A stretch of 64,000 nucleotides of DNA, from assembly GCA_964195315.1 (NCBI GenBank), contig CAXMOZ010000089.1, positions 17,086 to 81,085 of the forward strand, read 5' to 3'. This DNA comes from an uncultured Acidimicrobiia bacterium. GTDB lineage: Bacteria; Pseudomonadota; Gammaproteobacteria; GCA-001735895. This document shows, in pieces, positions 4,718 to 47,237 of this stretch. Made by a program: the position numbers and the translations under genes. Under the pieces are notes generated by a model. That model was not told the DNA's origin and did no database searches. It worked only from the letters and a program-made list of their open reading frames with translations. How positions within the stretch are numbered: the stretch's first letter is position 1; the number at the start of each line of letters is the position of its first letter.

Positions 4718-5641
4718 TCAATAGCCAATCAGGCCATTAATATGAGCTGCAACACTGCGTCCGAGTGAGCTTAAATCGTAGCCACCTTCGAGCACAGATA
4801 CGATGCGGCCCTTACTATGTTGTTTTGCGACTGCGCGCAGTTGTTCACTTACCCATCGATAGTCATTATCGTAAAGGCGGACTTGTGACATATCATCTTC
4901 GGCGTGTGCATCAAAGCCAGCGGATATGAAAATCATTTCAGGTTTAAACGCATTGAGTGCTGGCAGCCATCGGTCGGTTATTACTTGACGAAACTCATTG
5001 CTACTGGCGCTAGCATCAAGCGGTGTATTAATAATATTAGCTGATGTTGGTTCTGTGCCGGAGAAGGGATAAAACGGGTGTTGAAAACTTGAGCAAAATA
5101 AAACATTCGGCTCATCGGTAAATATATCTTCGGTGCCATTGCCGTGGTGGACATCAAAATCGACAATCGCAACCCGAGACAATTGATAATGTTGACGTGC
5201 ATAGGCAGCTGCGATAGCAATATTATTAAAAAAACAAAAGCCCATCGCGCTTTTTCTTTCAGCGTGATGTCCGGGTGGACGAGTGGCACAAAATGCGACT
5301 TTTAGTTCCTCTTTCATTACCAGGTCAACGGCCTGCACGGCAGCCCCGGCTGCGTGCAGTGCAGCCGATAAAGTATGGGGATTCATAACTGCGTCTTCGC
5401 CAATTTGGGCATAGCCTTCGCTGGGGGCATTGTCAAAAATATATGCGATATAGGCAGGGTCATGCACTAAACCTAGCAACTTTCGGTCAATCGGAATGGC
5501 GTCGTATTGTCGGGTCACAAAATCAAGCCCAGAGCTAATTAATTGATTTTGAATCGCAGGCAAACGATCAGGTGATTCGGGGTGGTGCTCTCCCATGTCA
5601 TGGGCCTGACACGCAAAATGGCTAATAATTCCAACTGACAT
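4718..5641 (-). CDS. Histone-deacetylase-family (AcuC/HDAH-like) Zn-dependent deacetylase
   Basis: RPPGHH, GFCFFNN, DFDVHHGNGT, SAGFDAH, LEGGY motifs. Confidence 0.95.
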   Translation of the reverse strand: MSVGIISHFACQAHDMGEHHPESPDRLPAIQNQLISSGLDFVTRQYDAIPIDRKLLGLVHDPAYIAYIFDNAPSEGYAQIGEDAVMNPHTLSAALHAAGAAVQAVDLVMKEELKVAFCATRPPGHHAERKSAMGFCFFNNIAIAAAYARQHYQLSRVAIVDFDVHHGNGTEDIFTDEPNVLFCSSFQHPFYPFSGTEPTSANIINTPLDASASSNEFRQVITDRWLPALNAFKPEMIFISAGFDAHAEDDMSQVRLYDNDYRWVSEQLRAVAKQHSKGRIVSVLEGGYDLSSLGRSVAAHINGLIGY

Positions 5642-5659
5642 AGTGTTTGCTCGGTTATC

Positions 5660-7507
5660 TCAAATGCTTTCTGATAGCAAAAGTTCGAGATTCACTTCCT
5701 GAAAGTCGTCACTCGGTATACGTTCGAATCCGTTATGTTTAAATACAGCAATCATGGGTAGATTATCACTGCGGACAAAGGCCAATACTTTATCAAGCTT
5801 GCGGATCCGAGCGATTCGAATCATTTCCGATAACAACGTTTTTGCCATCCCCATCCCGCGTTTGCTTTCTTTGATTACAAAGGCAACTTCGCAGCAATTG
5901 TCGGCAGGGATGAAGTAGTAGCGCCCGACGGCCTGGATGGTTTCTTCATCATAGTCTTGATCGGTAAAACAAAGTGCAAGGTCTTTATGTTGATCGACAC
6001 TGACCAGGCTGCATGACTTCTCTCGACTCATTTGGGTGATGTTATAATTGTAACGCAGCAGTAAGGTTTCCTTGCTATGTGAATAGAAAAACTCCTGTAG
6101 CTTGCGTTCATCAGCGGGGTGTAATGGTCTGAGTGTATATTCGACATCTCCGAAGGTATATTTTTTGAATTCAACTGCACCCAGTTCGGGTACTGATGTT
6201 GGTGAGTCTTCCTGGTATTCGGGTACCCAGTAGTGTTTTCTAACATCGTTCAATAGCTGTGACCTGAACTTTGGGTGCGCGACTCGAATGAGCTCGAGTG
6301 CTCGTTCACGGATAGACTTACCCCGCAGGTTGGCAATGCCGTATTCGGTGACAACGTAGTGGACGTGTCCTCTTGATGTGACAACACCCGCACCTTCGGT
6401 TAAGTGCGTAACAATCTTTGAAATGCTGCCATTGTGAGTGGTCGATTGCAACGCGATAATAGGTTTGCCACCACGACTTAATGAGGCGCCTCGAATAAAG
6501 TCAACCTGACCGCCAATACCACTAAAAAATTGATAGCCTATAGAATCTGCCACCACCTGGCCCGACAGGTCAATTTCAATTGCGCTGTTAATTGAAACCA
6601 TGTTGTCATTACGGGCGATATTGACAGGGGAGTTAACCACTTGTGAAGGATGGAATTCAATGTGAGGGTTGCCATCAACAAAGTCATACAATTGTTTTGA
6701 TCCCATGCAAAACGTGGTAACTGTTTTACCGGGATTATAGGTTTTACGGCGATTATTAATCACACCCTTTTTCATCAAATCGATAATGCCATCAGATATC
6801 ATTTCGCTGTGAATACCTAAATCTTTATGGTTACAAAGATAACGCAAAGCAGCGTCAGGAATTTTGCCAATACCCAACTGTAAGGTGGAGCCATTATCGA
6901 CTAGCATTGAAACATACTGTCCGATTTGCTCAGTAACCTTGTCGTATTGTGCTGGTGGTAACTCAGGTAAAACTTGCTCCTGTTGTATCCAGGCAGTAAT
7001 TTGATTGACGTGAATAAACGATTGACCATTAGTCCGCGGCATTTTCGTGTTGACCTGTGCCACAACATATTTAGCATGTTTCACCGCCGCCGACACGATA
7101 TCGACACTAACGCCGAGCGAACAGTAGCCATATTCATCTGCCGGGCTCACCATTACCAAAGCCACATCGAGCGGTAAAACATTATCCTCGAATAAGCTGG
7201 AAATTTCAGACAGGAAGCAGGGGGTGTAATCGGCACGTCCCTCCGCAATGGCTTCGCGCACATTTTTTCCGCCAATGAAGAGGGTATTCACCTTGAACAG
7301 CTCTTGATGTTCTGGCTTAGCCCAAATATTGTCTGATAGCGTTAAAATATGGACGACTTCAATATCGCGCAGGTTTTGATGGTTATCAATTAGGTCTTCG
7401 ATGAGTGCATTTGGAACGGCGGCATTTGAACCAATGAAGATTCGATTACCGGATTTTAGTAATGATTGCCAATCGATCAGCGAATCATCACCTGGCTTTG
7501 ATAACAC
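5660..7507 (-). CDS. Acetyl-CoA hydrolase/CoA-transferase fused to a C-terminal GNAT acetyltransferase
   Basis: LQLGIGKIP, GIHSEM (catalytic Glu), SGIGGQVDF, VVTEYGIANLRG; C-terminal EVAFVIKESKRGMGMAK acetyl-CoA-binding motif. Confidence 0.9.
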   Translation of the reverse strand: MLSKPGDDSLIDWQSLLKSGNRIFIGSNAAVPNALIEDLIDNHQNLRDIEVVHILTLSDNIWAKPEHQELFKVNTLFIGGKNVREAIAEGRADYTPCFLSEISSLFEDNVLPLDVALVMVSPADEYGYCSLGVSVDIVSAAVKHAKYVVAQVNTKMPRTNGQSFIHVNQITAWIQQEQVLPELPPAQYDKVTEQIGQYVSMLVDNGSTLQLGIGKIPDAALRYLCNHKDLGIHSEMISDGIIDLMKKGVINNRRKTYNPGKTVTTFCMGSKQLYDFVDGNPHIEFHPSQVVNSPVNIARNDNMVSINSAIEIDLSGQVVADSIGYQFFSGIGGQVDFIRGASLSRGGKPIIALQSTTHNGSISKIVTHLTEGAGVVTSRGHVHYVVTEYGIANLRGKSIRERALELIRVAHPKFRSQLLNDVRKHYWVPEYQEDSPTSVPELGAVEFKKYTFGDVEYTLRPLHPADERKLQEFFYSHSKETLLLRYNYNITQMSREKSCSLVSVDQHKDLALCFTDQDYDEETIQAVGRYYFIPADNCCEVAFVIKESKRGMGMAKTLLSEMIRIARIRKLDKVLAFVRSDNLPMIAVFKHNGFERIPSDDFQEVNLELLLSESI

Positions 7508-7562
7508 GAGGCGCTTCCTTTTGATGGCTTATAGGTAGTTGTTAAACGTTTTAGTTTAAACA

Positions 7563-7611
7563 TTAACTGATAATAACAAAGATCTAGCAGCCAAGTGTTG
7601 ATAAAAATCAA
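7563..7611 (-). promoter_or_regulatory. FNR/ANR-type class II promoter for the CoA-transferase-GNAT/deacetylase genes
   Basis: Perfect TTGAT-AAAA-ATCAA at 7598-7611; minus-strand extended -10 TG-T-TATTAT at 7578-7570; the box is centred at -41.5 if +1 is 7563. Confidence 0.75.
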
Positions 7612-7726
7612 CTGAGTATCATAAATAGTACTGCTTTTTTAGCTGGCTTTAGCTCAGGACCATCTCTTCAAACTTGGTGATTTTTGTTTTGTCGGTTTAG
7701 TGAATATTAGTACCGCATCGACAAAC

Positions 7727-8143
7727 TTATACCGACGTCGGCTCATTCAATTCAATCACATAACCATTTGGATCTTTAAAAAAAGCAATTACCCTTGTCC
7801 CCGCATTCATAGGGCCGGGCTCTCTGATACATTCAACGCCTTCCGATTTAAGATACTCAGCTGTTGCGTAAACATCGGATACCTTCAGCGCGAAATGCCC
7901 CCATGCGTTACCCATATCATAAGGTTCTGTCTGATCCCAATTGTAGGTCATTTCTATCGATGTGCCCTCATCTTCTCCTTGATAACCTACAAAGGTATTC
8001 GTGAATTGGCCATCAGGATATTCGTTTTGGCGCAGGATTTTCATACCGAGAACCCGAGTATAAAAGTCCATGGTCTTATCCTGGTCAAACACGCGGATCA
8101 TTGTATGGTCGAGACGAAAGTCTGGTTTTGTAATTGGATTCAT
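7727..8143 (-). CDS. gloA: Lactoylglutathione lyase (glyoxalase I)
   Basis: DHTMIRV, FYTRVLGM, IEMTYNWD, YDMGNAWGHFA, FFKDPNGYVIEL. Confidence 0.9.
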   Translation of the reverse strand: MNPITKPDFRLDHTMIRVFDQDKTMDFYTRVLGMKILRQNEYPDGQFTNTFVGYQGEDEGTSIEMTYNWDQTEPYDMGNAWGHFALKVSDVYATAEYLKSEGVECIREPGPMNAGTRVIAFFKDPNGYVIELNEPTSV

Positions 8144-8178
8144 TTTGCTCTCTTTAATATAATTGGAGGGTTATTTTG

Positions 8179-9300
8179 TCAGGTCAGGCCAGGGCGGATT
8201 GCATTCGCTACCAGTTCCTGAAATTTCCTGACACTGATTTCCCAGTAGGGAGATAATACGCCACCTGATGCTGCCAAATGTGAGTGACGCCCTATTTGTA
8301 AGCGCTCACCCATCTCGTGATCTTCGAGGTGCACACTATGCCATAATTTTTTAAGCCCCTGAATTTGGTCGTCACTATATTGGGAATCTTTGTGGACATA
8401 GATCACCCGATATTGAACAGTAGTGCCAGCATTAATCGGAACATTTAAATGGATACCAAGTTGATCAGGCTGATAGGTGCCCATCACAAAGTTTGGGAAG
8501 AGTGACAGGTATCTCGATGTGACGCCCAGAGTGCCTTGCCCGGCTCTGGCCACTTGTTCATCAGATAAGTCGACTGCGCTGCCAAGGCAATTACCTTCAA
8601 CAATCGCATAATGATTTTTGAGCGGCTGACTTGTCGTGGCTTTATGGACGAACTGCACATGGTATGGCTCTATGAAGTTTTCCATTAACAACTTCCAGTT
8701 ACAGGCAACTTCACCAAATTCAACCATGGCGACTGGTCTGTATTGAGTAACATCGTTATCACCAAGTATTTTTTTGAGCGGTTTCACAAAGTCGTCAAAT
8801 GGCTCTGCATTTGAGTCAAGGTTGATGAAAACCCAGTCGTGCCAAACCTCGCAATCAATTGTTGCTAAACCATTGTCTTTTAGATCAAACCCTTCGCAGG
8901 GTTGCGTAGCTTCGCCACCAAAGAAAGGGGCGTTTTTAAGATTACCAGCGAGATCGTAACTCCAGCTATGGTAAGGACAGCGAATCATGCGACCGCAGTT
9001 TGAGGCTTCAGACACTAATTGCAGGTTTCGATGCCGACACACATTGTGAAAGGCTTTGATCTCATGGTTTTCATTGCGAATTAAAAAGATGGGCTGCCCC
9101 GCAATTGTTAGCGGTTGAATATCACCTGGCTTGGGAAGTTGATGGGCGAACCCGCTAAAGGTCCATGATTTGGCAAACAGGTATTCGTCTTCTAACTGTT
9201 TAAATGCGTCGCTGATATAGGCTGCGCTGGGCAGCCCGTGCTTGGGTGCGCTATCGCTATCAAACTCGTCCAGTAGGTCCGTACTCAAAACTTGGTTCAT
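8179..9300 (-). CDS. Rieske non-heme iron oxygenase alpha subunit (choline-monooxygenase-like group)
   Basis: CRH...CPYH Rieske ligands; NWKLLMENFIEPYH..FVH and LED mononuclear iron ligands. Confidence 0.92.
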   Translation of the reverse strand: MNQVLSTDLLDEFDSDSAPKHGLPSAAYISDAFKQLEDEYLFAKSWTFSGFAHQLPKPGDIQPLTIAGQPIFLIRNENHEIKAFHNVCRHRNLQLVSEASNCGRMIRCPYHSWSYDLAGNLKNAPFFGGEATQPCEGFDLKDNGLATIDCEVWHDWVFINLDSNAEPFDDFVKPLKKILGDNDVTQYRPVAMVEFGEVACNWKLLMENFIEPYHVQFVHKATTSQPLKNHYAIVEGNCLGSAVDLSDEQVARAGQGTLGVTSRYLSLFPNFVMGTYQPDQLGIHLNVPINAGTTVQYRVIYVHKDSQYSDDQIQGLKKLWHSVHLEDHEMGERLQIGRHSHLAASGGVLSPYWEISVRKFQELVANAIRPGLT

Positions 9301-9302
9301 GG

Positions 9303-9420
9303 CGTAATAGTCCCGCTGAATTGCCTTAACATTAATATCTACGTAATTTATTCCTTAATTCGTAATAAATCCATACTATTGTTACGGTATAAGTAAATAA
9401 ATTCTTGATTAATGCGTAAT
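9303..9420. promoter_or_regulatory. Divergent control region with repeated CGTAAT motif (candidate Lrp/AsnC operator array)
   Basis: CGTAAT at 9303, 9342, 9361, 9415 and inverted CGTAAC (gttacg) at 9381 in an AT-rich spacer. Confidence 0.45.
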
Positions 9421-9476
9421 GCATATTTATGATTGCTAGGACTTTAGATGAATTGATGGCAGGATTGAGGAATTAT

Positions 9477-10016
9477 ATGGCTCGGGGTATCAGGGTAGTT
9501 GGACCGTTAGATGAATCAGAGTTGGCGTCAGCCGGCTCCGGAGTGGATGGTAAATTTTTTAGCGAAGACAAGTTAAATCGAGAAATAGTTAGCATGCTGC
9601 AAAGTGATGGGCGTATGGCTTTTTCAGAGATTGCGAAAAGCCTGTCAGTCTCTGAAGGCACGATTCGTAACCGTGTGAATAGTATGAAACAGGCCGGCAT
9701 GTTACGCATTGTCGCAATTGCTGACCCAGTCGCCGCTGAATACAAAAGCGATGCGATGCTTGGGATTAAGGTAGCCGCTGGACATACCGTCCAAGCCCTA
9801 TCAGAGAGGCTCGCTGCTTCTGCTGATGTGGTTTACATACTTTGGGTGAGCGGGCGTTATGACTTATTAGTTGAAGTGGTGAGCAATGATCGTGATGGAT
9901 TTCTCACCTTTCTCGATGAAGAAATTCATCAGCAGTTAGATATTGTATCCAGCGAAACCATGTCTGGACTTAAAAATTTCAAAAATCAGTTTCTGCTAAA
10001 ACAAAATTGGAGCTGA
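9477..10016 (+). CDS. Lrp/AsnC family transcriptional regulator
   Basis: LQSDGRMAFSEIAKSLSVSEGTIRNRV HTH, SGRYDLLVEV RAM domain; start moved to ATG 9477 after GAGGA RBS. Confidence 0.92.
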   Translation: MARGIRVVGPLDESELASAGSGVDGKFFSEDKLNREIVSMLQSDGRMAFSEIAKSLSVSEGTIRNRVNSMKQAGMLRIVAIADPVAAEYKSDAMLGIKVAAGHTVQALSERLAASADVVYILWVSGRYDLLVEVVSNDRDGFLTFLDEEIHQQLDIVSSETMSGLKNFKNQFLLKQNWS

Positions 10017-10084
10017 AAATTGCACTGTTAGTAGCGATCAAAAGTTAGTTTTTACCTTATAGAATCAAGATCTAGGAGAATGAT

Positions 10085-11500
10085 ATGACCGTTTATGTCG
10101 AAACCTTTGCCGAAGCCATACCCTCGAAAGAGCGTATTGCCGAAGTTCGAAAGGAGCTAGAAGATGCGGGTGTTGAATATGTACTTTCGAGCTGGATAGA
10201 TTTATTTGGTATCCCAAAAACTAAGCCAGTACCGATGAGTGATTTCGAGCAATTGTGTCTGGGAAAAGGGCCTCAATTTGCAGTTCACTCTATTTCATTT
10301 GTGCCTGAGTTATCGCCTGCCGATTCAGATCAGGTGATGGTGCCTGATTTAGATGCGGTTTATATCTGTCCCTGGGACAAATCAATGGCGATTATTTTCG
10401 CGGACTTGTTCTGGGAAGACAAACCCTACAATGTTTGTCCGCGCCAGTCACTAAAGCGTCAAATTCGCGATGCTAAAGACGCTGGTTATGTCGGTTATGC
10501 CGGGATCGAGCCAGAATTCATTGCGATGCGTTTTAACGATGAAGGGCAGCCAGTCAAAGCCTTCGATAGTGACCCTGAAAAAGGCTTACGCTCACGCCGA
10601 CAGGCCTTTGGTTACGATGTCGAGCAATCTATCGACTCGATGCCCTTCCTCAAGGACCTGATTGATATTCTAGAAGATATGGGTTGGAACATGCATGACG
10701 TAGTCGCCGAAGGCGCCTACTCACAGTTTGAACTAGATTTTCACTATACCGATTTATTAGAAATGGCCGATCGATATACCTTCCTGCGTATCCTATTAAA
10801 GGAAGTTGCCAAGGAACACGGCATGTTTATTACTTTTATGCCTAAGCCAACCAGTGGTGATTGGCGTTCAGGCGCTCATATCAACTTGTCTTTACAAAAG
10901 GCTGATGCGCCTGGCGTAAATATATTTGGCAATGATGAAGATGGTTGGAGTGACGAGTCTCTTTGGGCCGTTGGTGGTTTAATTAAACACTCAGAAGCCA
11001 TTACAGCTATTGCCTGCCCAATTGTTAACTCTTACAACGGGCTTGTACCGCGAGTGGGTGGTTTCGAAGGTGGTACGGTTACCTGGGCCCCGACTAACAT
11101 TACCTATGGCTACAACAATCGTGCAGCACAGTTCCGTTTGCCACAAAGCCGTTACTGTATTGAAAACCGCGCTGCTGATATGTGCATGAATATCTATCTA
11201 GGACTTGGCATGTCAATTGGTGGTGCTGTTAAAGGTATCCAGAACAAGATGGAACCAGGCGAGCCTTGTAATCTTAATCTTTATGAGATGACGGATGAAC
11301 AGTTCGAAGCAGCCGGAATTCGCAGGTTGCCACGTAATTTGATGATTGCACTGGAAGCATTGCGTAACGATGAATTGGCTGTTCAAGTGATGGGGCCAGT
11401 GATGCTTAAGTCATACTTGGCTTACAAGGATGACGAGTGGGAGCGCTACCACCAAACAGTGACCGACTGGGAAGTAGAAGAATACCTACGACTCTTCTAA
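10085..11500 (+). CDS. Glutamine-synthetase-fold amide ligase (GlnT/gamma-glutamylamide synthetase-like), divergent active site
   Basis: GIEPEF, EGAYSQFE, FMPKP, TWAP, NNR..FRLP, CIENR metal/ATP motifs retained; substrate-binding motifs altered. Confidence 0.88.
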   Translation: MTVYVETFAEAIPSKERIAEVRKELEDAGVEYVLSSWIDLFGIPKTKPVPMSDFEQLCLGKGPQFAVHSISFVPELSPADSDQVMVPDLDAVYICPWDKSMAIIFADLFWEDKPYNVCPRQSLKRQIRDAKDAGYVGYAGIEPEFIAMRFNDEGQPVKAFDSDPEKGLRSRRQAFGYDVEQSIDSMPFLKDLIDILEDMGWNMHDVVAEGAYSQFELDFHYTDLLEMADRYTFLRILLKEVAKEHGMFITFMPKPTSGDWRSGAHINLSLQKADAPGVNIFGNDEDGWSDESLWAVGGLIKHSEAITAIACPIVNSYNGLVPRVGGFEGGTVTWAPTNITYGYNNRAAQFRLPQSRYCIENRAADMCMNIYLGLGMSIGGAVKGIQNKMEPGEPCNLNLYEMTDEQFEAAGIRRLPRNLMIALEALRNDELAVQVMGPVMLKSYLAYKDDEWERYHQTVTDWEVEEYLRLF

Positions 11501-11555
11501 TCTGTAGAGGGTGAAAGTTTTGATCTCACCCTCGCTCAAACCAGTTTAAAGCCAA

Positions 11556-12587
11556 ATGACAAGTGCTCCAAAAAATGCACAGAAATGTGCCCAAACATAT
11601 GAAATACCCGATTTCGAACTTCAGTCGGGTGTTGTGTTGCCATGTGCCTGTCTGGTTTATAAAACCTATGGCGAGCTGAATGCAGCGAAAGATAATGTTG
11701 TGGTATTGCCCACTTTTTATACGGGCAGTCACCAACGCAACGAAGGGTTTTTTGGTGCAAAGCGCGCTATAAATACAGCTTTGCATTTTATTATTTCAGT
11801 GAACTTGTTTGGTAACGGAATTTCTTCGTCACCGAGCAATACTCCACCACCCTTTAATGCAGGTAACTTTCCAGCGATTACTTTGTTCGACAATGTCCGA
11901 GCGCAGCACAAACTACTCACCGAGGTGCTTGGTGTGACTGAAATTGCGTTGGTAACAGGCTGGTCGATGGCCGGTTGCCAGGCTTTTCAATGGGCTGCTC
12001 AATACCCCAATATGGTAAGAGCTATCCTACCTTTTTGCGCTTCGTCGAAGACATCTGAACATAACATTGTCTTCCTTGAAGGCATCAAATCGGCACTTCA
12101 GGCAGATGCAGTTTATGACGAAGGCAATTATCAGACACCACCCGTTAGAGGGTTAAAAGCGTTTGGCAGAAATTATGCTGGCTGGGCATTTTCGCAGACT
12201 TATTATCGTAAGAAAATGTACCGGTTGCAAGGTTTTGACAGCTTTGAAGCCTTATTGCAAGACTGGGAACAAGATCATCTTGATTGGGATGCAAATGACT
12301 TATTGTGCAAATTAAAGACCTGGCAGCAAGCTGATATAAGTCAGCAACCTGCCTACGATGGTGACTTTGTGAAAGCGTTAAATGCCATTAAAGCGAAAAC
12401 GATCATTATCGGCTGTGATGATGATATGTACTTTCGAGTTGAAGATAATCAAATTGAGGCGGCACAAATTAACAATGCTGAACTTCGTGTCTATTCATCA
12501 CCCTGGGGGCATTGTGTTGCATCACCTGGCAATGACCCTAAATTTGAAAAATTTCTGGATCAATCCATTTCAGAATTATTACCTTGA
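11556..12587 (+). CDS. MetX (homoserine acetyltransferase)-fold alpha/beta hydrolase or acyltransferase
   Basis: LVYKTYGELN, nucleophile GWSMAG, Asp in DDMYF, His in WGH; lacks the MetX HALTG-type motif. Confidence 0.85.
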   Translation: MTSAPKNAQKCAQTYEIPDFELQSGVVLPCACLVYKTYGELNAAKDNVVVLPTFYTGSHQRNEGFFGAKRAINTALHFIISVNLFGNGISSSPSNTPPPFNAGNFPAITLFDNVRAQHKLLTEVLGVTEIALVTGWSMAGCQAFQWAAQYPNMVRAILPFCASSKTSEHNIVFLEGIKSALQADAVYDEGNYQTPPVRGLKAFGRNYAGWAFSQTYYRKKMYRLQGFDSFEALLQDWEQDHLDWDANDLLCKLKTWQQADISQQPAYDGDFVKALNAIKAKTIIIGCDDDMYFRVEDNQIEAAQINNAELRVYSSPWGHCVASPGNDPKFEKFLDQSISELLP

Positions 12588-12621
12588 ATATTAATTCAGT
12601 GAACTTTAACCGGAGAAGAAA

Positions 12622-13026
12622 ATGACAGCACCAAGCGTATATAGAATCGCCGATATTCAGGATCGTATCGATAATCTGCCTGAGAATGGTACTTTCATTA
12701 AGCCATTCGTTACTATTGAAACCAGTACTAGCATGTGCGGTGGTATCAACGCACTGAATAAAATTTCAGTGCCATGGGACTTAACCTGTGATGAGTTAAT
12801 TTATTGCCTTGAGGGTACATTCCGTTTGGTTGTTGAGGACATTGGTTATGAGCTAAACCCAGGTGATATGATGTTTGTACCTAAGGATAATCATGTTGTT
12901 TATGAATGCGATGATAAGTGCGTTATTTTTTATTCGGCTTATCCTGTTGATTGGAAACAGCGTGCCGGTATTACCCATGTGCCTGGCATCGATTCAGATG
13001 AAATGCCTACACCATACAAGGACTAA
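12622..13026 (+). CDS. EutQ-like cupin
   Basis: WDLTCDELIYCLEG, LNPGDMMFVPK, YPVDW. Confidence 0.8.
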   Translation: MTAPSVYRIADIQDRIDNLPENGTFIKPFVTIETSTSMCGGINALNKISVPWDLTCDELIYCLEGTFRLVVEDIGYELNPGDMMFVPKDNHVVYECDDKCVIFYSAYPVDWKQRAGITHVPGIDSDEMPTPYKD

Positions 13027-13079
13027 CCCAGTGCCAGTCCTCTTCGTTTTGGAGAGGGCAATTTAACAGGTTTTTTACC

Positions 13080-13445
13080 ATGTCCATCCCCAAGATAATA
13101 GAAACCTATCTTAAAGGCTGGCAGCTAGGTGATGGAGCATTGAGCCTTACCGCCACTGCTGACAGTTTCTACTATGACGATCCTAATACGGGTAGAATTC
13201 AACGGCATGAGTTGGTTCAATTTGTAAATGATTTTAAAAGCGCTGCGGTAGACATGGGGGCGGAAGAGAATGCCAATCCGTTTTTAATTTATAGTGATGT
13301 TGTGATTGACTATAATATTAGCCCAGTAACTGTTTGGTGTTGGTGGCAGGCCAATGGTACTGATCTGCAAGGGTGCGCCTTAGTTAAAGTTGGAGAAGAG
13401 GGGGTCTTGAACGAGAAGATAGCTTACTTCTCTCAATTATCCTAA
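13080..13445 (+). CDS. SnoaL/NTF2-like protein
   Basis: 121 aa, YLKGWQLGD, FYYDDPNTG and beta-rich C-terminus typical of the NTF2 fold. Confidence 0.6.
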   Translation: MSIPKIIETYLKGWQLGDGALSLTATADSFYYDDPNTGRIQRHELVQFVNDFKSAAVDMGAEENANPFLIYSDVVIDYNISPVTVWCWWQANGTDLQGCALVKVGEEGVLNEKIAYFSQLS

Positions 13446-13510
13446 CTGACCGAGGACAGTAGACTGAAAAGCAGAAGCACGACATCTCTGCCGTGATTCT
13501 GTTTCGTTAT

Positions 13511-14338
13511 TTATGCTGCTTTAACTTCGTGCATGTGAACATCTTGCTGTGGGTACGGAATGCTAATACCTGCTTCATCTAGCTTAACCTTAATGCCCTC
13601 GAGCAACTCAGCACGAACGCCCCAGTAATCAGCTGAATTCACCCAGGGGCGAACATTCAAATTAACACTGCTGTCACCTAATTCTGCAACGGCAACACCC
13701 GGTGCAGGGTCTTTTAAAATAAGCTCGTTCGATTCTATAATCCTCATAATAATGTCTCGAGCTTGACCAATGTTGTCGTCATAGCCGATGCCAATGACAA
13801 GGTCGATACGGCGCGTTGGTAAAGCACTGGTATTAATAATATTGCCCCCCAAAATGGCCGAGTTAGGAATAATGATACGTTGGTTGTCAGCGGTATGCAT
13901 CAGAGTTGCGAACAAACCAATTTCATCAATCACACCTGCCGCGCCGCCAGCGGTAACAAAGTCACCAATTTTGAATGGGCGAAAAATGATGATCATAACG
14001 CCAGACGCAAAGTTAGATAGCGAGTCCTTCAGCGCTAAGCCAACAGCAAGACCGGCGGCAGCTACAATTGCCATCAGTGAGGTAACGTTTACACCGAGAG
14101 AGTCTACGGCGGCAAGTACAACGGCGACTATCAATACACCGTATGAAATGCTACCCATAAAATCCACTAGCATCGAATCGATGCCAGATTTTTGCAGAGC
14201 TTTTTTTAGAAGATTACTAACGATTCTGGCAACTATTTTACCGATAATAAATATCGCAATCGCAATGACGATCTTAATGCCCCAGTCAACCCCGTTATTG
14301 GCGATCCAATTTGTTACGTTGTCCATTTTTAGTTCCAT
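13511..14338 (-). CDS. mscS: Small-conductance mechanosensitive channel
   Basis: AAGLAVGLALKDSLSNFASG, RPFKIGD, IIPNS, PYPQQDVH. Confidence 0.93.
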   Translation of the reverse strand: MELKMDNVTNWIANNGVDWGIKIVIAIAIFIIGKIVARIVSNLLKKALQKSGIDSMLVDFMGSISYGVLIVAVVLAAVDSLGVNVTSLMAIVAAAGLAVGLALKDSLSNFASGVMIIIFRPFKIGDFVTAGGAAGVIDEIGLFATLMHTADNQRIIIPNSAILGGNIINTSALPTRRIDLVIGIGYDDNIGQARDIIMRIIESNELILKDPAPGVAVAELGDSSVNLNVRPWVNSADYWGVRAELLEGIKVKLDEAGISIPYPQQDVHMHEVKAA

Positions 14339-14667
14339 TGTTTATCTGTTTTTAGAATAATAAAGTAACGGGTCATACTTTTTCTAATCAAACTGAGTTT
14401 ATCGATAAAGAATCCCCGCGAGCCCTTGTCCACATCTATTATAGCGAATGCTTAGACCGATGGTAAACATGAAAGTTATACCGATCTTAATCTACCTGAA
14501 TGCGATTATCACGAGTACTATAAATGAAACCTGTTGTGTTACTCAATCAGGTTAATAGCGCTTAGACAATAAGATTTTGGATAAAAGTAAACTTTTAACC
14601 TATTCTGTACGCTTGGTATAAAGTTATATTATTGGTTAACAACAAATTAAAATAATGAGGAAGGGGT

Positions 14668-16209
14668 ATGGATTTACCATTCGTGGGCGACGGTGTTGAT
14701 AAATTTGTTGCTGGATTTGTATCAGTCACAACAACGCTTATTGTGTTATCGATCTGTTTTGGGGCTGTTGCGGTAGTTGTCATTTACATCATTGATATAA
14801 CTCAAACTAAGCAGGCGATCCGGCGTAACTATCCGGTTGTTGGACGATTTCGATACTTTTTTGAACATCTGGGTGAGTTTTTTCGGCAGTATTTCTTTTC
14901 GATGGATAGAGAGGAACTACCGTTTAATCGAGCCCAGCGATCATGGGTGTATCGAGCAGCCAAACAGGTGGACACCACGGTAGCATTTGGATCGACTAAA
15001 GACTTAAGGCCCGCAGGGACAAACATATTTCTGAATTGCCCATTTCCGACGCTGGGTACGGATGGGGTTGATCCAGGTGAGATAGTGATAGGGCCACAGG
15101 CAAGAAAGCCCTACGCCACACGCTCGTTGTACAATATATCGGGTATGAGTTTTGGAGCGCTTTCGGCCCCCGCTGTAACGGCACTGGCACGCGGTGCCAA
15201 GGAAACCAAGTGTTGGATGAATACAGGCGAAGGGGGCGTCTCTCCCTATCACCTCGCTCCAGGTTGCGATCTGATCGTGCAAATTGGCACCGCCAAATAT
15301 GGTGTGCGTGACCTTGAAGGTAATCTGAGTGATGATAAGCTGAAAGCGCTGGCTGAATACGAACAGATTAAAATGTTTGAGATTAAATTGAGTCAAGGTG
15401 CAAAGCCCGGTAAAGGTGGCATTCTGCCTGGCGAAAAAGTATCTGCTGAAATCGCTGAAATCCGAGGCATTGAAATTGGTACCAGCTCTATCAGTCCTAA
15501 TCGTCACCCCGATATTAATTCAGTTGATGACCTTACTGATATGATCAACCATATTCGTGAGGTGACTGGTCGTCCTGTTGGAGTTAAATGTGTTGTAGGT
15601 GCTAGTGGGTGGCTAGATGATTGGTTTGATAGCATCAATAAACGGGGTAAAGAATGCGCGCCTGATTTTATTACGGTCGACGGTGCGGAAGGGGGGACAG
15701 GTGCAGCACCTATGGCATTGATCGACGAAGTCGGGCTTCCGCTGCGCGAGAGCTTGCCACTAGTGGTAGATAAATTGGATATTCATGGTCTGCGTGATCG
15801 GGTCAAAGTGATCGCTTCTGGAAAATTAATCAATCCGTCAAATGTTGCCTGGGCTTTATGCATGGGTGCTGACTTTTGTACTTCAGCTCGAGGCTTTATG
15901 TTTTCACTTGGATGTATACAAGCCTTGCAGTGCAATAAAAATACTTGCCCAACTGGAATAACAACCCACGACATTAAATTGCAGCGTGGCCTTGACCCTA
16001 CCAATAAAGCAGTCCGAGTAGCCAAGTTTCAAGATCAAATTGAATACGAAGTTGGTCTTATCGCGCATGCTTGTGGTGTGACAGAGCCACGCCAATTACG
16101 TCGATTTCATTGCAGAGTGGTACAAGAGAATGGCATTTCGATACCCTTAAATGATATATATCCTGATAGGTCAACTGTCGGTTATTTGAGCCGGCGCGGA
16201 AACGGCTAG
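14668..16209 (+). CDS. FMN-binding glutamate synthase family protein (stand-alone, N-terminal TM)
   Basis: MSFGALS, NTGEGG, EIKLSQGAKPGKGG, DGAEGGTGAAP, GCIQALQCNKNTCPTG (3Fe-4S Cys motif). Confidence 0.92.
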   Translation: MDLPFVGDGVDKFVAGFVSVTTTLIVLSICFGAVAVVVIYIIDITQTKQAIRRNYPVVGRFRYFFEHLGEFFRQYFFSMDREELPFNRAQRSWVYRAAKQVDTTVAFGSTKDLRPAGTNIFLNCPFPTLGTDGVDPGEIVIGPQARKPYATRSLYNISGMSFGALSAPAVTALARGAKETKCWMNTGEGGVSPYHLAPGCDLIVQIGTAKYGVRDLEGNLSDDKLKALAEYEQIKMFEIKLSQGAKPGKGGILPGEKVSAEIAEIRGIEIGTSSISPNRHPDINSVDDLTDMINHIREVTGRPVGVKCVVGASGWLDDWFDSINKRGKECAPDFITVDGAEGGTGAAPMALIDEVGLPLRESLPLVVDKLDIHGLRDRVKVIASGKLINPSNVAWALCMGADFCTSARGFMFSLGCIQALQCNKNTCPTGITTHDIKLQRGLDPTNKAVRVAKFQDQIEYEVGLIAHACGVTEPRQLRRFHCRVVQENGISIPLNDIYPDRSTVGYLSRRGNG

Positions 16210-16296
16210 ATGTTGAGGTTGTCTGAAAACATTAATTAAAAAAAGGTCTGAAAAAACCAACTCAATAAGCGAAAGCTCTAACCCCAAGGAATCCCA

Positions 16297-17931
16297 ATGA
16301 AAGCGAGTGATCTGTTTGTACGTTGTCTAGAAAATGAAGGCGTTGAATATATTTTTGGCATCCCTGGAGAAGAGAATCTCGATGTCATGGATTCGATGAT
16401 TGGTAGCGATATTAAGTTTATAACCACTCGGCATGAACAGGGGGCCGCGTTTATGGCTGATGTTTATGGACGTTTAACCGGCAGAGCGGGTGTATGTCTA
16501 GCAACGCTCGGCCCTGGTGCTACCAATCTGGTCACTGGGTTTGCCGATGCCAATATGGATAGAGCGCCCATTGTTGGAATAGCCGGGCAGGGTGCGACCA
16601 CAAGAATGCATAAAGAAAGTCACCAGGTACTTGATTTGGTGAGTTTGTTTGCACCGATATCTAAATATAGCGTTGAGATTCGGGAACCTGAAATTGTTGG
16701 CGAAATTGTACGTAAAGCGTTTAAAGCCGCAGAAGCCGAAAAACCAGGCGGCAGCTTCATTTCATTTCCTGAAAATGTAGCGGAGATGACAGTCGAAGGT
16801 AAAGAGCCACTCAAGGTACAAAGTGCTAAGCCACCCGTACCACCGCAGGATAAAATTTTACAGGCAGCGGAGTTGATTTCGAATGCCAAATATCCTCTGG
16901 TGATGGCTGGCAACGGTGTCGTAAGAGCGAAAGCCGATTATGCATTAGTCGCCTTTGCCGAAAAACTCAATATACCGGTAGCCACTACCTTTATGGCCAA
17001 GGGCAGTATTCCATTTTCTCACGACCTGTCGCTTGGCACGGTTGGTTTACAGGCACATGATTATGTTGCCTGTGGTTTTGATCGAGCCGACGTCGTGATT
17101 TGTATCGGCTACGATATGATCGAATATCATCCTCATCTTTGGAATCAGGAAAAGAACAACAAGATTATTCACATTGATTTGAATCCGGCCGAAGTGGATG
17201 AACACTATATACTTGAATGTGGTGTTATCGGTGATATCACCGCTGCATTAGAAGGCATTGCAGCATTGGCAACCCCGAAGACAGGTTCACAGGCGCAAAA
17301 CTTACGCGAAACCATTGTCGAAGAACTGAATACCCACGAAGACGACAGCTCATTCCCATTAGTGCCTCAACGCATTGTGCTCGATATCCGAAAAGCCTTA
17401 GCACATGACGATATCGTGGTATCCGATGTGGGTGCTCATAAGATGTGGATGGCGCGTATGTATCAGGCTGAGCGTCCGAATACTTGTATTATCTCAAATG
17501 GTTTTGCATCGATGGGCATCGGTGTGCCAGGTGCGATAGCGGCCAAATTGGTTTATCCAGATAGAACCGCATTAACAGTAACAGGTGATGCCGGATTTCT
17601 AATGAATTCACAAGAGATCGAAACTGCCATGAGAATTGGCACCGCAATTATTATATTGATCTGGAACGATAGCAAATATGGTTTGATAAAATGGCATCAG
17701 GACCGTCGCTTTGGCCGTGACACTCAAATTCAATTTAATAACCCTGACTTTGTGATGTATGCCGAGAGTTTTGGCGCAAAAGGATATCGTGTTGAATCTG
17801 CTGATGACTTATTACCGACCATTAAAAAGGCCATTGCCGACGATACGGTGGTAATCATCGATTGTCCCGTGGATTACTCAGAGAACATGAAACTCACCGA
17901 GAAACTTGGAAATCTAGTTTGCCCTATTTAA
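16297..17931 (+). CDS. ThDP-dependent acetolactate-synthase-like enzyme; candidate 2-oxoglutarate decarboxylase (OgdA-like)
   Basis: FGIPGEEN, RHEQGAAFMAD, DVGAHKMW, SNGFASMG, GDAG..N ThDP motif; resembles, from memory, cyanobacterial OgdA. Confidence 0.85.
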   Translation: MKASDLFVRCLENEGVEYIFGIPGEENLDVMDSMIGSDIKFITTRHEQGAAFMADVYGRLTGRAGVCLATLGPGATNLVTGFADANMDRAPIVGIAGQGATTRMHKESHQVLDLVSLFAPISKYSVEIREPEIVGEIVRKAFKAAEAEKPGGSFISFPENVAEMTVEGKEPLKVQSAKPPVPPQDKILQAAELISNAKYPLVMAGNGVVRAKADYALVAFAEKLNIPVATTFMAKGSIPFSHDLSLGTVGLQAHDYVACGFDRADVVICIGYDMIEYHPHLWNQEKNNKIIHIDLNPAEVDEHYILECGVIGDITAALEGIAALATPKTGSQAQNLRETIVEELNTHEDDSSFPLVPQRIVLDIRKALAHDDIVVSDVGAHKMWMARMYQAERPNTCIISNGFASMGIGVPGAIAAKLVYPDRTALTVTGDAGFLMNSQEIETAMRIGTAIIILIWNDSKYGLIKWHQDRRFGRDTQIQFNNPDFVMYAESFGAKGYRVESADDLLPTIKKAIADDTVVIIDCPVDYSENMKLTEKLGNLVCPI

Positions 17932-17977
17932 GGCCAGAGATTCTTTATTAATAGACAAACAAAAATAGGGAGCAACC

Positions 17978-19414
17978 ATGACTGCTGAATTTCAACTAAT
18001 GGTTCCTGGCGCGACAGCGGATAAAGAACACAGAGTATCATCACCCTGGGATTTATCCGATATCGGCATGGTGCCAACCATCAACTCGACTGGTGCTGAT
18101 ATCGCGATGAAAACTGCACAAGCGGTATTTCGGGATAAATCTCGATGGCTAAAGCCCGAGCAGCGAATCCAGATACTGGAAAGAACAGCACAAATAATGA
18201 GCGAACAGTTCGAAGCCTTAGCCATTCTGGCGGCTAGCGAAGGCGGTAAGCCATTACTCGATTCACGTGTTGAAGTCGCTCGCGCTATTGATGGCGTACG
18301 TAATTCAGTGGAATGCCTGCGCACTGAAAGTGGTCGTGAAATTCCGATGAACTTGAATGCAGCTTCGGCTAATCGACTCGCGTTCACGAGACGAGAACCG
18401 ATAGGTGTGGTGATGTCGGTCAGTGCGTTTAATCACCCACTGAATTTAATTGTCCATCAAGTTGCACCCGCCATCGCTAGTGGTTGTCCGGTTATTATCA
18501 AACCAGCAGAAGATACACCTTTATCCTGTTTTCGCTTTGTACAAATACTACGTGAGGCTGGTTTGCCGGCTTCACATTGTCAGGCGGTGATGACGAGTGA
18601 TCTCGATGTCGCATCACAATTAGTGACAGACCGGCGTGTTGCCTTCTTTTCATTTATCGGCAGTGCCAAGGTCGGCTGGATGTTGCGCTCACAATTAGCC
18701 TCAGGCACTCGTTGTGCTTTAGAACATGGCGGTGCAGCGCCAGTCATTATCGCTCAAGATGCAGATCTTGATGATACGCTACCTTTGATAGCCAAGGGTG
18801 GTTTCTATCATGCCGGTCAAGTTTGCGTGTCAGTTCAGCGAGTTTTTGCGCATCGAAGCATCGCGCGTCAGGTCGCTGAAAAACTAGCTGAGCTTGGTTC
18901 GAAAATGAGCATCGGTGATCCAATACTTGAGTCAAGTTTGATAGGTCCATTAATACGGCCCAGAGAAGTCATGAGAGTTCATAACTGGGTAACGGACGCT
19001 ATTGCCGAAGGTGCCGAGTGCCTGGTCGGTGGCGAATTAAATTCAGACACCAGCTATCAATCGACTGTATTATTTGAGCCTTCGCCTCAAAGCAAAGTCA
19101 GTCAGTTAGAAATCTTTGGTCCTGTGATTTGTGTGTATGCCTATGACGATATCGATGAAGCAATTGCTCGCGCCAATAGTCTCGATGTCGCCTTTCAGGC
19201 ATCGGTATTAACCAGTAGCATCGATACCGCAATGCATTGTTATACTCAGCTTAATGCATCGGCGGTGATGGTCAACGACCACACAGCCTATCGTGTCGAC
19301 TGGATGCCTTTTGCTGGTTTGAAACAATCAGGCCTGGGCGTTGGCGGCATTCCCTATACCTATGAAGACATGCAAATCGAAAAGATGATGTTGTTACGCT
19401 CAAAGGCTTTATAA
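17978..19414 (+). CDS. NAD(P)-dependent aldehyde dehydrogenase
   Basis: AFNHP, IKPAEDTP, FIGS, LEHGG (Glu), GQVCVS (Cys), EIFGP, PFAGLKQSG. Confidence 0.95.
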   Translation: MTAEFQLMVPGATADKEHRVSSPWDLSDIGMVPTINSTGADIAMKTAQAVFRDKSRWLKPEQRIQILERTAQIMSEQFEALAILAASEGGKPLLDSRVEVARAIDGVRNSVECLRTESGREIPMNLNAASANRLAFTRREPIGVVMSVSAFNHPLNLIVHQVAPAIASGCPVIIKPAEDTPLSCFRFVQILREAGLPASHCQAVMTSDLDVASQLVTDRRVAFFSFIGSAKVGWMLRSQLASGTRCALEHGGAAPVIIAQDADLDDTLPLIAKGGFYHAGQVCVSVQRVFAHRSIARQVAEKLAELGSKMSIGDPILESSLIGPLIRPREVMRVHNWVTDAIAEGAECLVGGELNSDTSYQSTVLFEPSPQSKVSQLEIFGPVICVYAYDDIDEAIARANSLDVAFQASVLTSSIDTAMHCYTQLNASAVMVNDHTAYRVDWMPFAGLKQSGLGVGGIPYTYEDMQIEKMMLLRSKAL

Positions 19415-38049: not shown

Positions 38050-39240
38050 ATGGCAAAAGCAAAATTTGAAAGAAACAAGCCCCACGTCAATGTGGGAACG
38101 ATTGGTCACGTCGATCATGGCAAGACCACGCTAACCGCAGCACTGACCAAAGTAATGGCAGAGCAGCAAGGTGGTGAAGTTAAAGCATTCGCTGAAATCG
38201 ATAATGCACCCGAAGAAAAGGCGCGTGGTATAACTATCTCGACTTCGCATGTCGAGTATGAATCAGTTAATCGTCACTACGCACACGTCGATTGCCCAGG
38301 TCACGCAGATTATGTTAAAAACATGATTACTGGTGCAGCCCAAATGGACGGCGCTATTTTAGTCTGTTCAGCAGCAGACGGTCCAATGCCTCAAACACGT
38401 GAGCACATCTTGCTATCACGTCAGGTTGGTGTTCCTTATATCGTAGTCTTCATGAATAAAGCCGACATGGTTGATGATGAAGAGCTATTAGAGCTAGTAG
38501 AAATGGAAATTCGTGAACTACTAGACGCTTACGATTTCCCGGGCGACGATACGCCAATCATCACAGGTTCTGCCCTAAAAGCATTAGAAGGCGATACTAG
38601 TGAAATTGGTGTTCCATCGATCATGAGGCTAGTCGAGGCATTAGATACTTACGTACCAGAGCCAGAACGAGCAATCGAAGGCGACTACCTGATGCCAGTA
38701 GAAGATGTGTTCTCTATTTCAGGTCGAGGAACAGTAGTAACAGGTCGAATTGAGCGTGGAATCGTCAAAGTTGGCGAAGAAATAGCTGTTGTCGGTATTA
38801 CCGATACTATCAAGACCACTTGTACTGGTGTTGAGATGTTTCGTAAATTGCTTGACCAAGGTCAGGCTGGTGACAACGTTGGTATCTTATTACGTGGTAC
38901 TAAACGGGAAGACGTTCAGCGTGGTCAAGTATTAGCGAAGCCGGGTTCAATTACGCCACACACAAAGTTTGAATGTGAAGTGTATATCCTGTCGAAAGAC
39001 GAAGGTGGTCGTCACACACCATTCTTTAATGGCTATCGCCCTCAGTTTTACTTCCGTACGACTGACGTTACTGGTGCTTGTGAATTACCAGAAGGTATTG
39101 AAATGGTCATGCCTGGTGACAACGTTAAGATGGAAGTTACCTTAATAGCACCAATCGCAATGGACGATGGACTTCGCTTCGCAATTCGTGAAGGTGGTCG
39201 TACTGTTGGTGCGGGTGTTGTTGCTAAGATTCTTGCGTAA
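38050..39240 (+). CDS. tuf: Elongation factor Tu, copy 1
   Basis: [34 protein letters not shown]. Confidence 0.99.
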
Positions 39241-46100: not shown

Positions 46101-47235
46101 AGCACGCTTAATTACCGGCCAACCAGCCAGTGGCGGGCCAGAAGGACTAAAGCGTGGCGCAGTAATAACTCAAGAGTATCTTACTTCGATTAGTCGCGAC
46201 CAATGGTCAAGTATTCGAATGAGTGATGACGGTGTTAGTAAGGAACTCGAGTCTTTGAGTGATCAGCTAGCAGGTCAACGCTCTGAATTTGATAGTTTGT
46301 TCGAAGAAAAGAAACGCAAAGTAACTGCAGGCGATGACCTTAAACCAGGCGTGTTAAAAATGGTTAAGGTGTATGTTGCAGTTAAGCGTCGCATGCAGCC
46401 TGGTGATAAAATGGCGGGACGTCATGGCAACAAAGGTGTTGTGTCGATGATCGTACCTGAAGAAGACATGCCTTATCGTGCTGATGGCACGCCAGTAGAT
46501 GTTGTTTTAAATCCCCTAGGTGTTCCATCACGCATGAATGTTGGGCAGGTACTCGAAGCGCATCTTGGTTGGGCTGCAAATGGACTTGGTTTAAAGATTG
46601 GTGGCATGTTAGATGCTCATACTAAAGCTGAAGAAATGCGTGGTTTCTTGAAGAAGATATACAACAGCACTAGTGAGAAGGTCGATTTCTCCAAATTAAA
46701 TGACGCTGAAGTCCTCGAGCTTTGTAAGAATCTAAGACGCGGCGTGCCTATGGCGACGCCTGTTTTTGACGGTGCCGACGAAGACGAAATTCGTACTATG
46801 CTTGCGTTAGCTGATTTGCCAGAAACAGGTCAGACAACATTGATTGACGGACGTACGGGTGAAGAATTTGATCGCCCAGTCACTGTTGGTTACATGTACA
46901 TGCTTAAGCTCAACCATCTGGTTGACGATAAGATGCATGCTCGTTCAACTGGTCCATACAGTCTCGTTACACAGCAGCCATTGGGCGGTAAAGCTCAGTT
47001 TGGTGGTCAGCGCTTTGGAGAGATGGAAGTATGGGCACTAGAGTCTTATGGCGCAGCCTATACGCTTCAGGAAATGTTGACCGTAAAGTCGGACGACGTG
47101 AATGGTCGTAATAAGATGTACAAGAATATCGTTGATGGCGACTTCCGTATGGAACCAGGCATGCCTGAGTCATTTAACGTATTACTTAAAGAGATTCGTT
47201 CTTTGAGCCTTAACATAGAGCTTGAGCAGGAGTAA
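43168..47235 (+). CDS. rpoB: RNA polymerase beta subunit
   Basis: [39 protein letters not shown]. Confidence 0.99.
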
Positions 47236-47237
47236 TC

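Follow-up and report, generated by a model that had tools for sequence, protein, structure and literature searches.

The window analyzed here, a stretch of 64,000 nucleotides from an uncultured bacterium (contig CAXMOZ010000089.1 of assembly GCA_964195315.1), carries at positions 10085–11500 of the + strand a gene for an ATP-dependent carboxylate-amine ligase of the glutamine synthetase (GS) family. In this ligase and its relatives, here termed the 'WR' arginine-swap family, the arginine that anchors glutamate in GS enzymes appears to have been relocated to a neighboring loop, not lost, with Arg261 probably supplying the same carboxylate anchor. By its sequence, the ligase is a member of a previously undescribed 'arginine-swap' clade inside the GmaS-like (gamma-glutamyl-amide synthetase) branch of the GS family, and a full-text literature search found no paper on this ligase family. 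The explanation that we favor, with a probability of roughly 0.55, is that the gene encodes an active GS-fold ligase performing the first step of a 'glutamylate, oxidize, deglutamylate' catabolic island, in which Arg261 would anchor glutamate, an organic amine would be the acceptor, and a Rieske oxygenase and a serine hydrolase would follow. Taken alone, the identification of L-glutamate as the acyl donor is probable.

The open reading frame (ORF) is full-length and intact, and direct translation gives a protein of 471 aa. The ligase was aligned (MAFFT) with E. coli GlnA (identical to PDB 7w85_A), two GmaS sequences, and one archaeal GS. It is 31% identical to GlnA, with which it shares the fold, the two-metal site, the ATP-binding arginines, and a candidate flap glutamate; in contrast, its flap is six residues longer, and Asp50, Asn264, Gly265, Lys320, and Arg321 are replaced (D50 to A66, N264 to W260, G265 to R261, K320 to N318, and R321 to G319). 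The metal ligands are kept (E129/E131 as E142/E144, E212/E220 as E209/E216, H269 as H265, and E357 as E360), as are the arginines that handle phosphate (R339/R344 as R346/R351 and R359 as R362), and both sets are invariant in every group compared. The two-metal site and the arginines for the ATP gamma-phosphate and acyl phosphate are thus intact, in agreement with a preliminary description of this stretch, which had listed the metal and ATP ligands as retained.

The two loops that carry the swap are GDWRSGAHIN (residues 258–267, positions 10856–10885, +), which includes the metal ligand H265, and NSYNGL (residues 315–320, positions 11027–11044, +), which opens the segment NSYNGLVPRVGGFEGGTVTWAP translated at 11027–11092. 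The preliminary description had read these loops by eye as NGSGMH turned into WRSGAH and SYKRL turned into SYNGL, with Arg321 changed to Gly; translation bears out W260-R261 at 10862–10867, and translation and alignment together place G319 at 11039–11041. In RhGmaS, Gly231 and Arg288 contact the alpha end of the bound glutamate analog methionine sulfoximine (MetSox) (PMC7948447). The ligase has Val207, Arg261, and Gly319 at the positions of RhGmaS Asp177, Gly231, and Arg288, so that an arginine appears at one of these two glutamate-contacting positions and disappears from the other.

Across the wider family, the two substitutions always go together. In a set of 95 representatives, obtained by clustering at 50% identity, an arginine at 265 (GlnA numbering) is always accompanied by a glycine at 321. 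This set was then enlarged by a search with a 42% identical relative (P0126). The 208 aligned GS-like sequences have, at 265/321, either G/R (100 sequences), R/G (98), or A, N, T, or S with R (10); R/R and G/G do not occur among them. The sole Gly265/Gly321 sequence, P0188, was left out of this count, its scrambled C-terminal half being taken for the result of an assembly error or a frameshift, and the contigs examined for the gene contexts of P0139 and P0188 are short or unannotated. Swapped sequences are down to 33% identical among themselves, and an unswapped group (with DNFGSGAHYN and SYKR) nests among them in a neighbor-joining tree. With columns 265 and 321 removed, monophyly of the swapped sequences was recovered in 1% of 200 neighbor-joining bootstraps; the swapped sequences are not monophyletic, and therefore the pair changed together at least twice. 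Because the Arg265/Gly321 coupling is both strict and repeated, a carboxylate-binding arginine seems to be required every time, and the simplest reading of these sequences is that one such anchor is always needed and may come from either loop. Arg321 is the textbook fixed glutamate anchor of the GS family, and a large clade has moved it, apparently repeatedly and reversibly. The swap provides a clean natural case of compensated active-site change, and a warning that 'Arg321 absent' should not be read as 'glutamate not used.'

The same residues are fixed within the ligase family itself. In 157 gamma- and alphaproteobacterial homologs with identities of 70% or more, the motifs FAVHS, HDVV.EG.YSQFELDFH, GDWRSGAHIN, VNSYNGLV, and GTVTWAP are all invariant, which argues that the motif changes are not due to chance. 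The one aligned member from Actinomycetota (P0316, 60% identical) also keeps FAVHS, GDWRSGAHIN, and the Gly at 321. The best 120 database matches of the ligase are all at least 80% identical, and the next relatives beyond the family are distant, at 57%, 42%, and 38% identity.

The amine pocket of the ligase is, as judged from the alignment, rebuilt: Asp50 is Ala, the GmaS residue Asp177 is Val, and several new invariant residues are present. The 'Asp50 loop' FAVHS (residues 65–69, positions 10277–10291, +; QFAVHSI is translated at 10274–10294) has Ala66 in place of Asp50 and a family-invariant His68, and here the preliminary reading of FDGSS as FAVHS, with Asp50 lost, is upheld by translation and alignment alike. 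The amine-pocket strand HDVVAEGAYSQFELDFHY (residues 204–221, positions 10694–10747, +) contains H204, D205, Y212, and H220, which are new and invariant, together with the metal ligands E209 and E216, and Val207 at the position of GmaS Asp177. This last change had gone unmentioned in the preliminary description. In RhGmaS, Asp177 is the base that deprotonates methylamine, and Arg312, Asp177, and Glu186 are reported to be strictly conserved among GmaS (PMC7948447). The ligase keeps the equivalents of Arg312 (R346) and Glu186 (E216), and has Val207 for Asp177 in all 157 members. The new invariant nucleophile-pocket set consists of His68, His204, Asp205, Tyr212, His220, and Glu328, and the pocket stays acidic through invariant D205, D218, E209, E216, and E328. 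With Asp50 as Ala, Asp177 as Val, and these new invariant residues, the acceptor would be an organic amine and not ammonium.

The extended flap, PRVGGFEGGTVTWAP (residues 322–336, positions 11048–11092, +), had been described as a GYEAP flap turned into TWAP with the loss of Glu327. The alignment suggests otherwise: the flap is lengthened, and GFE of the ligase aligns with E. coli GYE (E328 with E327) but in a longer loop. The GGFEG segment varies among the 157 homologs only at residue 327 (F/L), with E328 invariant, so that the Glu327 equivalent is probably present, by sequence, and the claim of its loss is probably wrong. Ordinary GmaS has both the TWAP flap extension and the change of Asp50 to Ala, and these two features are therefore not special to this ligase. 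The broader statement that both substrate pockets had been rewritten holds for the amine pocket; in the acid pocket, the arginine is relocated.

Profile and structure comparisons are consistent with a GS-fold enzyme outside of the curated families. The Pfam domain Gln-synt_C (PF00120) scores 285 bits against a gathering cutoff of 24, with a weak Gln-synt_N match. No curated NCBIfam equivalog cutoff is reached, the scores being 350.4 versus 469.6 bits for TIGR03105 (GmaS), 284.9 versus 429.15 for TIGR00653 (glutamine synthetase), and 184 versus 650 for the PuuA equivalog NF045547; for PRK09469, the score is 138 and the cutoff 845. The top PDB sequence matches are GmaS structures (9qur, 1e-69; 7cql, 2e-58), with GSI-alpha enzymes also among them. 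An AlphaFold2 model built from 59 relatives (pLDDT 93.4, pTM 0.94, with a weaker flap block at residues 321–330, pLDDT 74) has the GS fold, with TM scores of 0.83–0.89 against GmaS and GS structures, and superposes best on Methylovorus GmaS 9qur (TM 0.89/0.94). GmaS (RhGmaS, 7CQL–7CQX; Methylovorus mays, 9QUR) is thus the best match in both sequence and structure. The ligase resembles it in the metal ligands, the equivalents of Arg312, Arg317, and Arg327, the Ala at Asp50, and the long flap ending in TWAP, and it sometimes adjoins mgsABC. It differs in the residues at Gly231 (Arg), Arg288 (Gly), Asp177 (Val), Gln175 (Asp), and Asn188 (Asp), in the presence of the flap Glu, and in its partners, which are a Rieske oxygenase, glyoxalase I, a cupin, and a MetX-like hydrolase.

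These partners form a recurrent gene island, which was counted in 80 related loci, 78 of them holding the ligase. On the + strand, an AsnC/Lrp regulator, the ligase, a MetX/MekB-like hydrolase, a cupin, and a 121-aa protein follow one another with gaps of 34–68 bases, and a Rieske oxygenase and glyoxalase I are transcribed divergently from this run. The AsnC/Lrp-family regulator (9429–10016, +; Pfam HTH_AsnC-type and AsnC_trans_reg; 60 of the 80 loci) lies immediately upstream of the ligase. The most tightly linked partner, found in 68 of the 78 ligase-holding loci, is an alpha/beta serine hydrolase of the PRK07581 subfamily (11556–12587, +; NF005757, 427 bits, cutoff 332), with its GWSMAG nucleophile elbow kept in 64 of those 68. 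Its best PDB matches, 5d6o and 5e4y, are deposited as homoserine O-acetyltransferases, and we take them to be small-ester hydrolases. The EutQ-like small cupin (134 aa; 12622–13026, +; Pfam EutQ, 54 bits; PDB 4axo, 4e-12) occurs in 27 loci. The 121-aa protein (13080–13445, +), the last gene of the run, has orthologs in eight loci and gave no match in Pfam and NCBIfam searches.

On the opposite strand, the Rieske non-heme-iron oxygenase alpha subunit (8179–9300, −), found in 40 of the 80 loci, has as its best PDB match the carnitine monooxygenase CntA (6y8j/6y9c, 2e-27). What defines the quaternary-amine oxygenases of group Va is an aromatic residue where CntA has Tyr203 (PMC7948474). The protein encoded here has this signature, with Phe at the Tyr203 position (ENFIEPYHVQFVH), the bridging Glu205, and the Fe-binding His pair; the CntA Cys pair is absent, and the motif ENFIEPYH is invariant in 37 orthologs. 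Glyoxalase I (lactoylglutathione lyase; 7727–8143, −; TIGR00068, 136.6 bits, cutoff 120) lies downstream of the Rieske gene and is present in 41 loci, 37 of which also have a Rieske ortholog. The AT-rich divergent intergenic region between the Rieske and AsnC/Lrp genes (9301–9428) has three CGTAAT-containing repeats (tacgtaat, ttcgtaat, and tgcgtaat), which may be candidate operator sites bound by the AsnC/Lrp regulator. Promoter and terminator scans of positions 7400–14700 performed no better than on shuffled sequence.

About 20 loci have accessory genes for a second Rieske protein and a D-2-hydroxyacid dehydrogenase. An ABC transporter of the NitT/TauT type is also among the accessory genes of the island, and a BCCT transporter is present in the Ruegeria locus. 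An ABC substrate-binding protein had no match in a PDB sequence search and so gave no hint of a ligand. The island is spread across Gamma- and Alphaproteobacteria, SAR11 and Ruegeria among them; its core also occurs in Thermoleophilaceae, and plasmid pBMJM1_1 of Leisingera thetidis, a cultured species, carries this core with full annotation. A possible extension in the window (14668–19414, +) encodes a membrane-anchored flavin mononucleotide (FMN) 'glutamate-synthase-domain' protein, an acetolactate-synthase-like thiamine diphosphate (ThDP) enzyme (PRK08322, 800 bits), and an aldehyde dehydrogenase, which together look like an oxidize-decarboxylate-oxidize module. This trio was first assumed to be unrelated to the island, an assumption that was revised since it recurs downstream of the Leisingera thetidis plasmid island (61/42/58% identity). 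It was not seen within 8 kb of the island in the other loci and is treated as a possible extension only.

The neighborhoods of more distant relatives on the two sides of the swap were also compared. The unswapped relative P0302 has an AsnC regulator, an amino-acid permease, a Peptidase_C26 (PuuD family) gene directly downstream, FmdA/AmdA, and AllG as neighbors, and the swapped relatives P0126, P0272, and P0292 have AsnC, an NCS1 or amino-acid permease, AllG, FmdA/AmdA, and arginase-family and creatininase-family genes; a Peptidase_C26 gene is also close to the swapped ligase P0126. Because a PuuD-type hydrolase is thus near one ligase of each kind, gamma-glutamyl chemistry is indirectly supported on both sides of the swap, and on the question of whether the swap alters the pathway the gene neighborhoods say no. 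Other arginine-swap subfamilies and the unswapped sister group are represented by the loci L089 (Devosia), L093, L091, L081, and L092, where creatininase-family, arginase-family, DDAH/ADI, FmdA/AmdA, AllG, and DUF1989 genes recur. This suggests that the GS-like clade is broadly linked to the catabolism of guanidino, amide, or ureide compounds.

The preliminary description had proposed that the enzyme may not use glutamate, and had offered two accounts of the missing Arg321: a different acyl acid, or its replacement by the new Arg of WRSG. The 265/321 coupling favors the second account and weakens the first. Given the coupling, the repeated transitions, the ligand contacts, and the shared neighborhoods, the proposal that glutamate is not used is weakened and probably wrong. 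An Arg321 kept elsewhere, which the description had named among the findings that would speak against it, is essentially what the Arg261/Gly319 coupling provides.

In the pathway that we propose, the gamma-carboxylate of L-glutamate (or a very close analog) would first be phosphorylated by the ligase, while Arg261 keeps the alpha-carboxylate in place. The acyl phosphate would then be attacked by an organic amine rather than by ammonium, giving a gamma-glutamyl amide. The CntA-like Rieske oxygenase would next oxidize the glutamylated (or quaternary/N-methylated) intermediate adjacent to the nitrogen; this oxidation would yield an aldehyde, or a 2-oxoaldehyde if glyoxalase I has a role, in which case glyoxalase I would dispose of that product. 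Finally, the MetX/MekB-like serine hydrolase would release glutamate, a function that we infer because it occupies the operon position of the PuuD-type hydrolase in the sister clades. The island would be under the control of the AsnC/Lrp regulator.

This logic, in which an amine is protected as a gamma-glutamyl amide and oxidized, and glutamate is then released, is that of known gamma-glutamylation pathways. The systems for putrescine (PuuA-PuuD) and isopropylamine (IpuC), and Streptomyces GlnA2/3/4, have a GS-like ligase without Asp50, as here, with genes for an oxidizing enzyme and a hydrolase beside it and a dedicated regulator. The gene context of the island, with the Rieske oxygenase in 40 of 80 loci and the serine hydrolase in 68 of 78 ligase loci, matches that of a glutamylation pathway. 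Unlike in those pathways, a MetX/MekB-type alpha/beta serine hydrolase stands in place of PuuD, which is class-I amidotransferase-like, a Rieske oxygenase serves as the oxidant, and the ligase arginine is swapped. A precedent for a GS-like glutamylating enzyme paired with a Rieske enzyme that attacks the gamma-glutamyl amide exists in the aniline and 1-naphthylamine systems AtdA1, TdnQ, and NpaA1. Those Rieske enzymes, however, are two-subunit aromatic ring dioxygenases, whereas the enzyme here is alpha-only and CntA-like (quaternary-amine group V), with aliphatic-type partners that include glyoxalase I.

Clues to the amine come from the genes around the island. In 6 of the 80 loci, in two classes, it is adjoined by mgsABC-gmaS (the N-methylglutamate pathway for monomethylamine), and each of these six loci carries its own ordinary gmaS, with Asp177, Gly231, and Arg288. 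On the Arenicellales chromosome OZ242007.1 (L017 and L022) there are two ligase-hydrolase pairs, each about 80% identical to the query and each followed by its own mgsABC-gmaS set. One Arenicellales locus has a flavin monooxygenase of the Tmm type, and on the Leisingera and Alisedimentitalea plasmids the island lies among betaine transporters, carnitine dehydrogenase, an MttB-family methyltransferase, and arginase-family genes. The nearby transporters and methylamine genes suggest that the amine is probably a small methylated or quaternary nitrogen compound.

Several observations weigh against this pathway. The island is without a PuuD-type hydrolase, and the MetX/MekB relatives are esterases or acyltransferases, with no gamma-glutamyl amidase known among them. 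Quaternary ammonium compounds, which a CntA-like oxygenase and BCCT/ProU transporters would suit, cannot act as amine nucleophiles, and glyoxalase I has no evident role unless a 2-oxoaldehyde forms. In the ligase, Trp at Asn264 and Asn at Lys320 mean that the alpha-end pocket is altered beyond a simple arginine swap. The tree behind the repeated transitions was made with a simple method (neighbor joining) and has short internal branches.

The strongest alternative, and the one preferred in the preliminary description, is that the acyl donor is a related acid and not L-glutamate; we regard it as tentative. The donor could be N-methylglutamate, glutamate betaine, or another dicarboxylate that Arg261 would anchor in a different way, or else a 4-aminobutyrate-type acid without an alpha-carboxylate, such as gamma-butyrobetaine or carnitine. 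In its favor, the alpha-end pocket is altered at four invariant positions (W260, R261, N318, and G319), N-methylglutamate-pathway genes associate with the island, a PuuD-type hydrolase is absent from it, and quaternary-amine functions are nearby (the CntA-like Rieske oxygenase, BCCT and ProU-type transporters, and the carnitine genes of the Leisingera plasmid); the Trp at 264 could also provide a cation-pi contact. However, position 264 is aromatic or hydrophobic in unswapped sister groups as well (Phe, Met, or Leu), so that the change at this residue is not tied to the swap, and a cationic trimethylammonium group beside Arg261 would be unfavorable. The coupling implies a carboxylate-binding arginine in every case, and the contexts shared by swapped and unswapped relatives, with a PuuD-type hydrolase in one of each, also count against a different donor. 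In a narrower form, which appears doubtful, Arg261, Trp260, and Asn318 would re-tune the acid pocket for N-methylglutamate, a betaine-type acid, or another dicarboxylate; if true, this would be the first GS-family ligase shown to activate a non-glutamate acid, in a widespread marine pathway. A further possibility is that glutamate is kept and that the ligase makes gamma-glutamyl-dimethylamide or a similar amide in concert with the CntA-like oxygenase, which would constitute a route for secondary or quaternary methylated amines independent of dimethylamine monooxygenase.

It is unlikely that the acyl phosphate is used for an ester, a thioester, or a cyclization, with the MetX-like enzyme as an acyltransferase or esterase acting on the product. 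The ligase and the MetX-like hydrolase are the most conserved pair (68 of 78 loci), MetX/MekB relatives act upon O-acyl esters, and the known amine-deprotonating residues, Asp50 and GmaS Asp177, are both gone, all of which would fit such chemistry. The acidic pocket (D205, D218, E209, E216, and E328), however, fits a cationic amine, amide hydrolases are the partners in the sister clades, and we know of no precedent in the GS family for non-amide use of the acyl phosphate. Very unlikely is a second GmaS isozyme joining monomethylamine to glutamate: no solved relative is closer than GmaS, the TWAP flap and the Ala at Asp50 are common to both, and mgsABC lies beside the ligase in six loci, but those same loci already hold a separate ordinary gmaS, the ligase is under the TIGR03105 cutoff, the catalytic Asp177 is Val in 157 of 157 members, and identity to GmaS is about 33% versus 72–98% within the ligase family. 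A true ammonium-assimilating glutamine synthetase (EC 6.3.1.2) is hardly credible, since, despite the GS fold, full catalytic core, and flap Glu, the family-invariant Ala66 replaces Asp50, the TIGR00653 and PRK09469 cutoffs are missed, and the ligase is part of a catabolic island that has an AsnC regulator to itself.

The arginine-swap ligase with its proposed glutamylation island is widely distributed in the sea. Relatives at 72–98% identity occur in 202 stretches from species-representative genomes, whose carriers are uncultured Gammaproteobacteria, Arenicellales, Granulosicoccaceae, Rhodospirillales, Mesorhizobium, Ruegeria, SAR11 single-cell genomes, and one Mycolicibacterium. A sequencing-run search found the ligase sequence only in marine, sea-ice, brine, and sediment metagenomes and one metatranscriptome, and the marine metatranscriptome has exact contigs within the ligase and cupin genes, which indicates transcription and says nothing on induction. 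A ligase of this identity across SAR11, roseobacters, sponge-associated Arenicellales, and other lineages, transcribed in the sea and linked to methylamine genes and betaine-type transporters, suggests an unrecognized route for a small organic nitrogen compound. The cultured carriers Leisingera thetidis BMJM1, with its plasmid, and Ruegeria lacuscaerulensis make the island directly testable. Two published leads were set aside: a SAR11 one-carbon paper concerns a different gene (glnT/SAR11_1316, a putative GmaS), and the homarine pathway is unrelated, its homABCDER operon having no GS, Rieske, or glyoxalase component. The closest genomic relative (L001, JBLHID010000060.1) has 98% identity and the same gene order and is binned as a Polaribacter metagenome-assembled genome; this assignment is probably a binning error, because all other close relatives are gammaproteobacterial.

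The window itself is chromosomal and belongs to an uncultured gammaproteobacterium of marine origin, with rpoBC and ribosomal protein genes at 32–64 kb. Adjacent to the island, at 4718–7507 (−), a gene for a histone-deacetylase-family protein (acetylpolyamine amidohydrolase-like) adjoins an acetyl-CoA hydrolase/transferase-GNAT acetyltransferase fusion, a pair that is not conserved beside the island in other loci. At 55–582, the match of a 175-aa ORF to TauD/TfdA dioxygenases covers no more than their C-terminal half (profile positions 113–267), and this gene probably begins before the window or is truncated. Two ORFs of equal length (396 aa; 38050–39240 and 55501–56691) flank rpoBC (43168–51473) and the ribosomal protein region, and from their size and position may be duplicated tuf genes.

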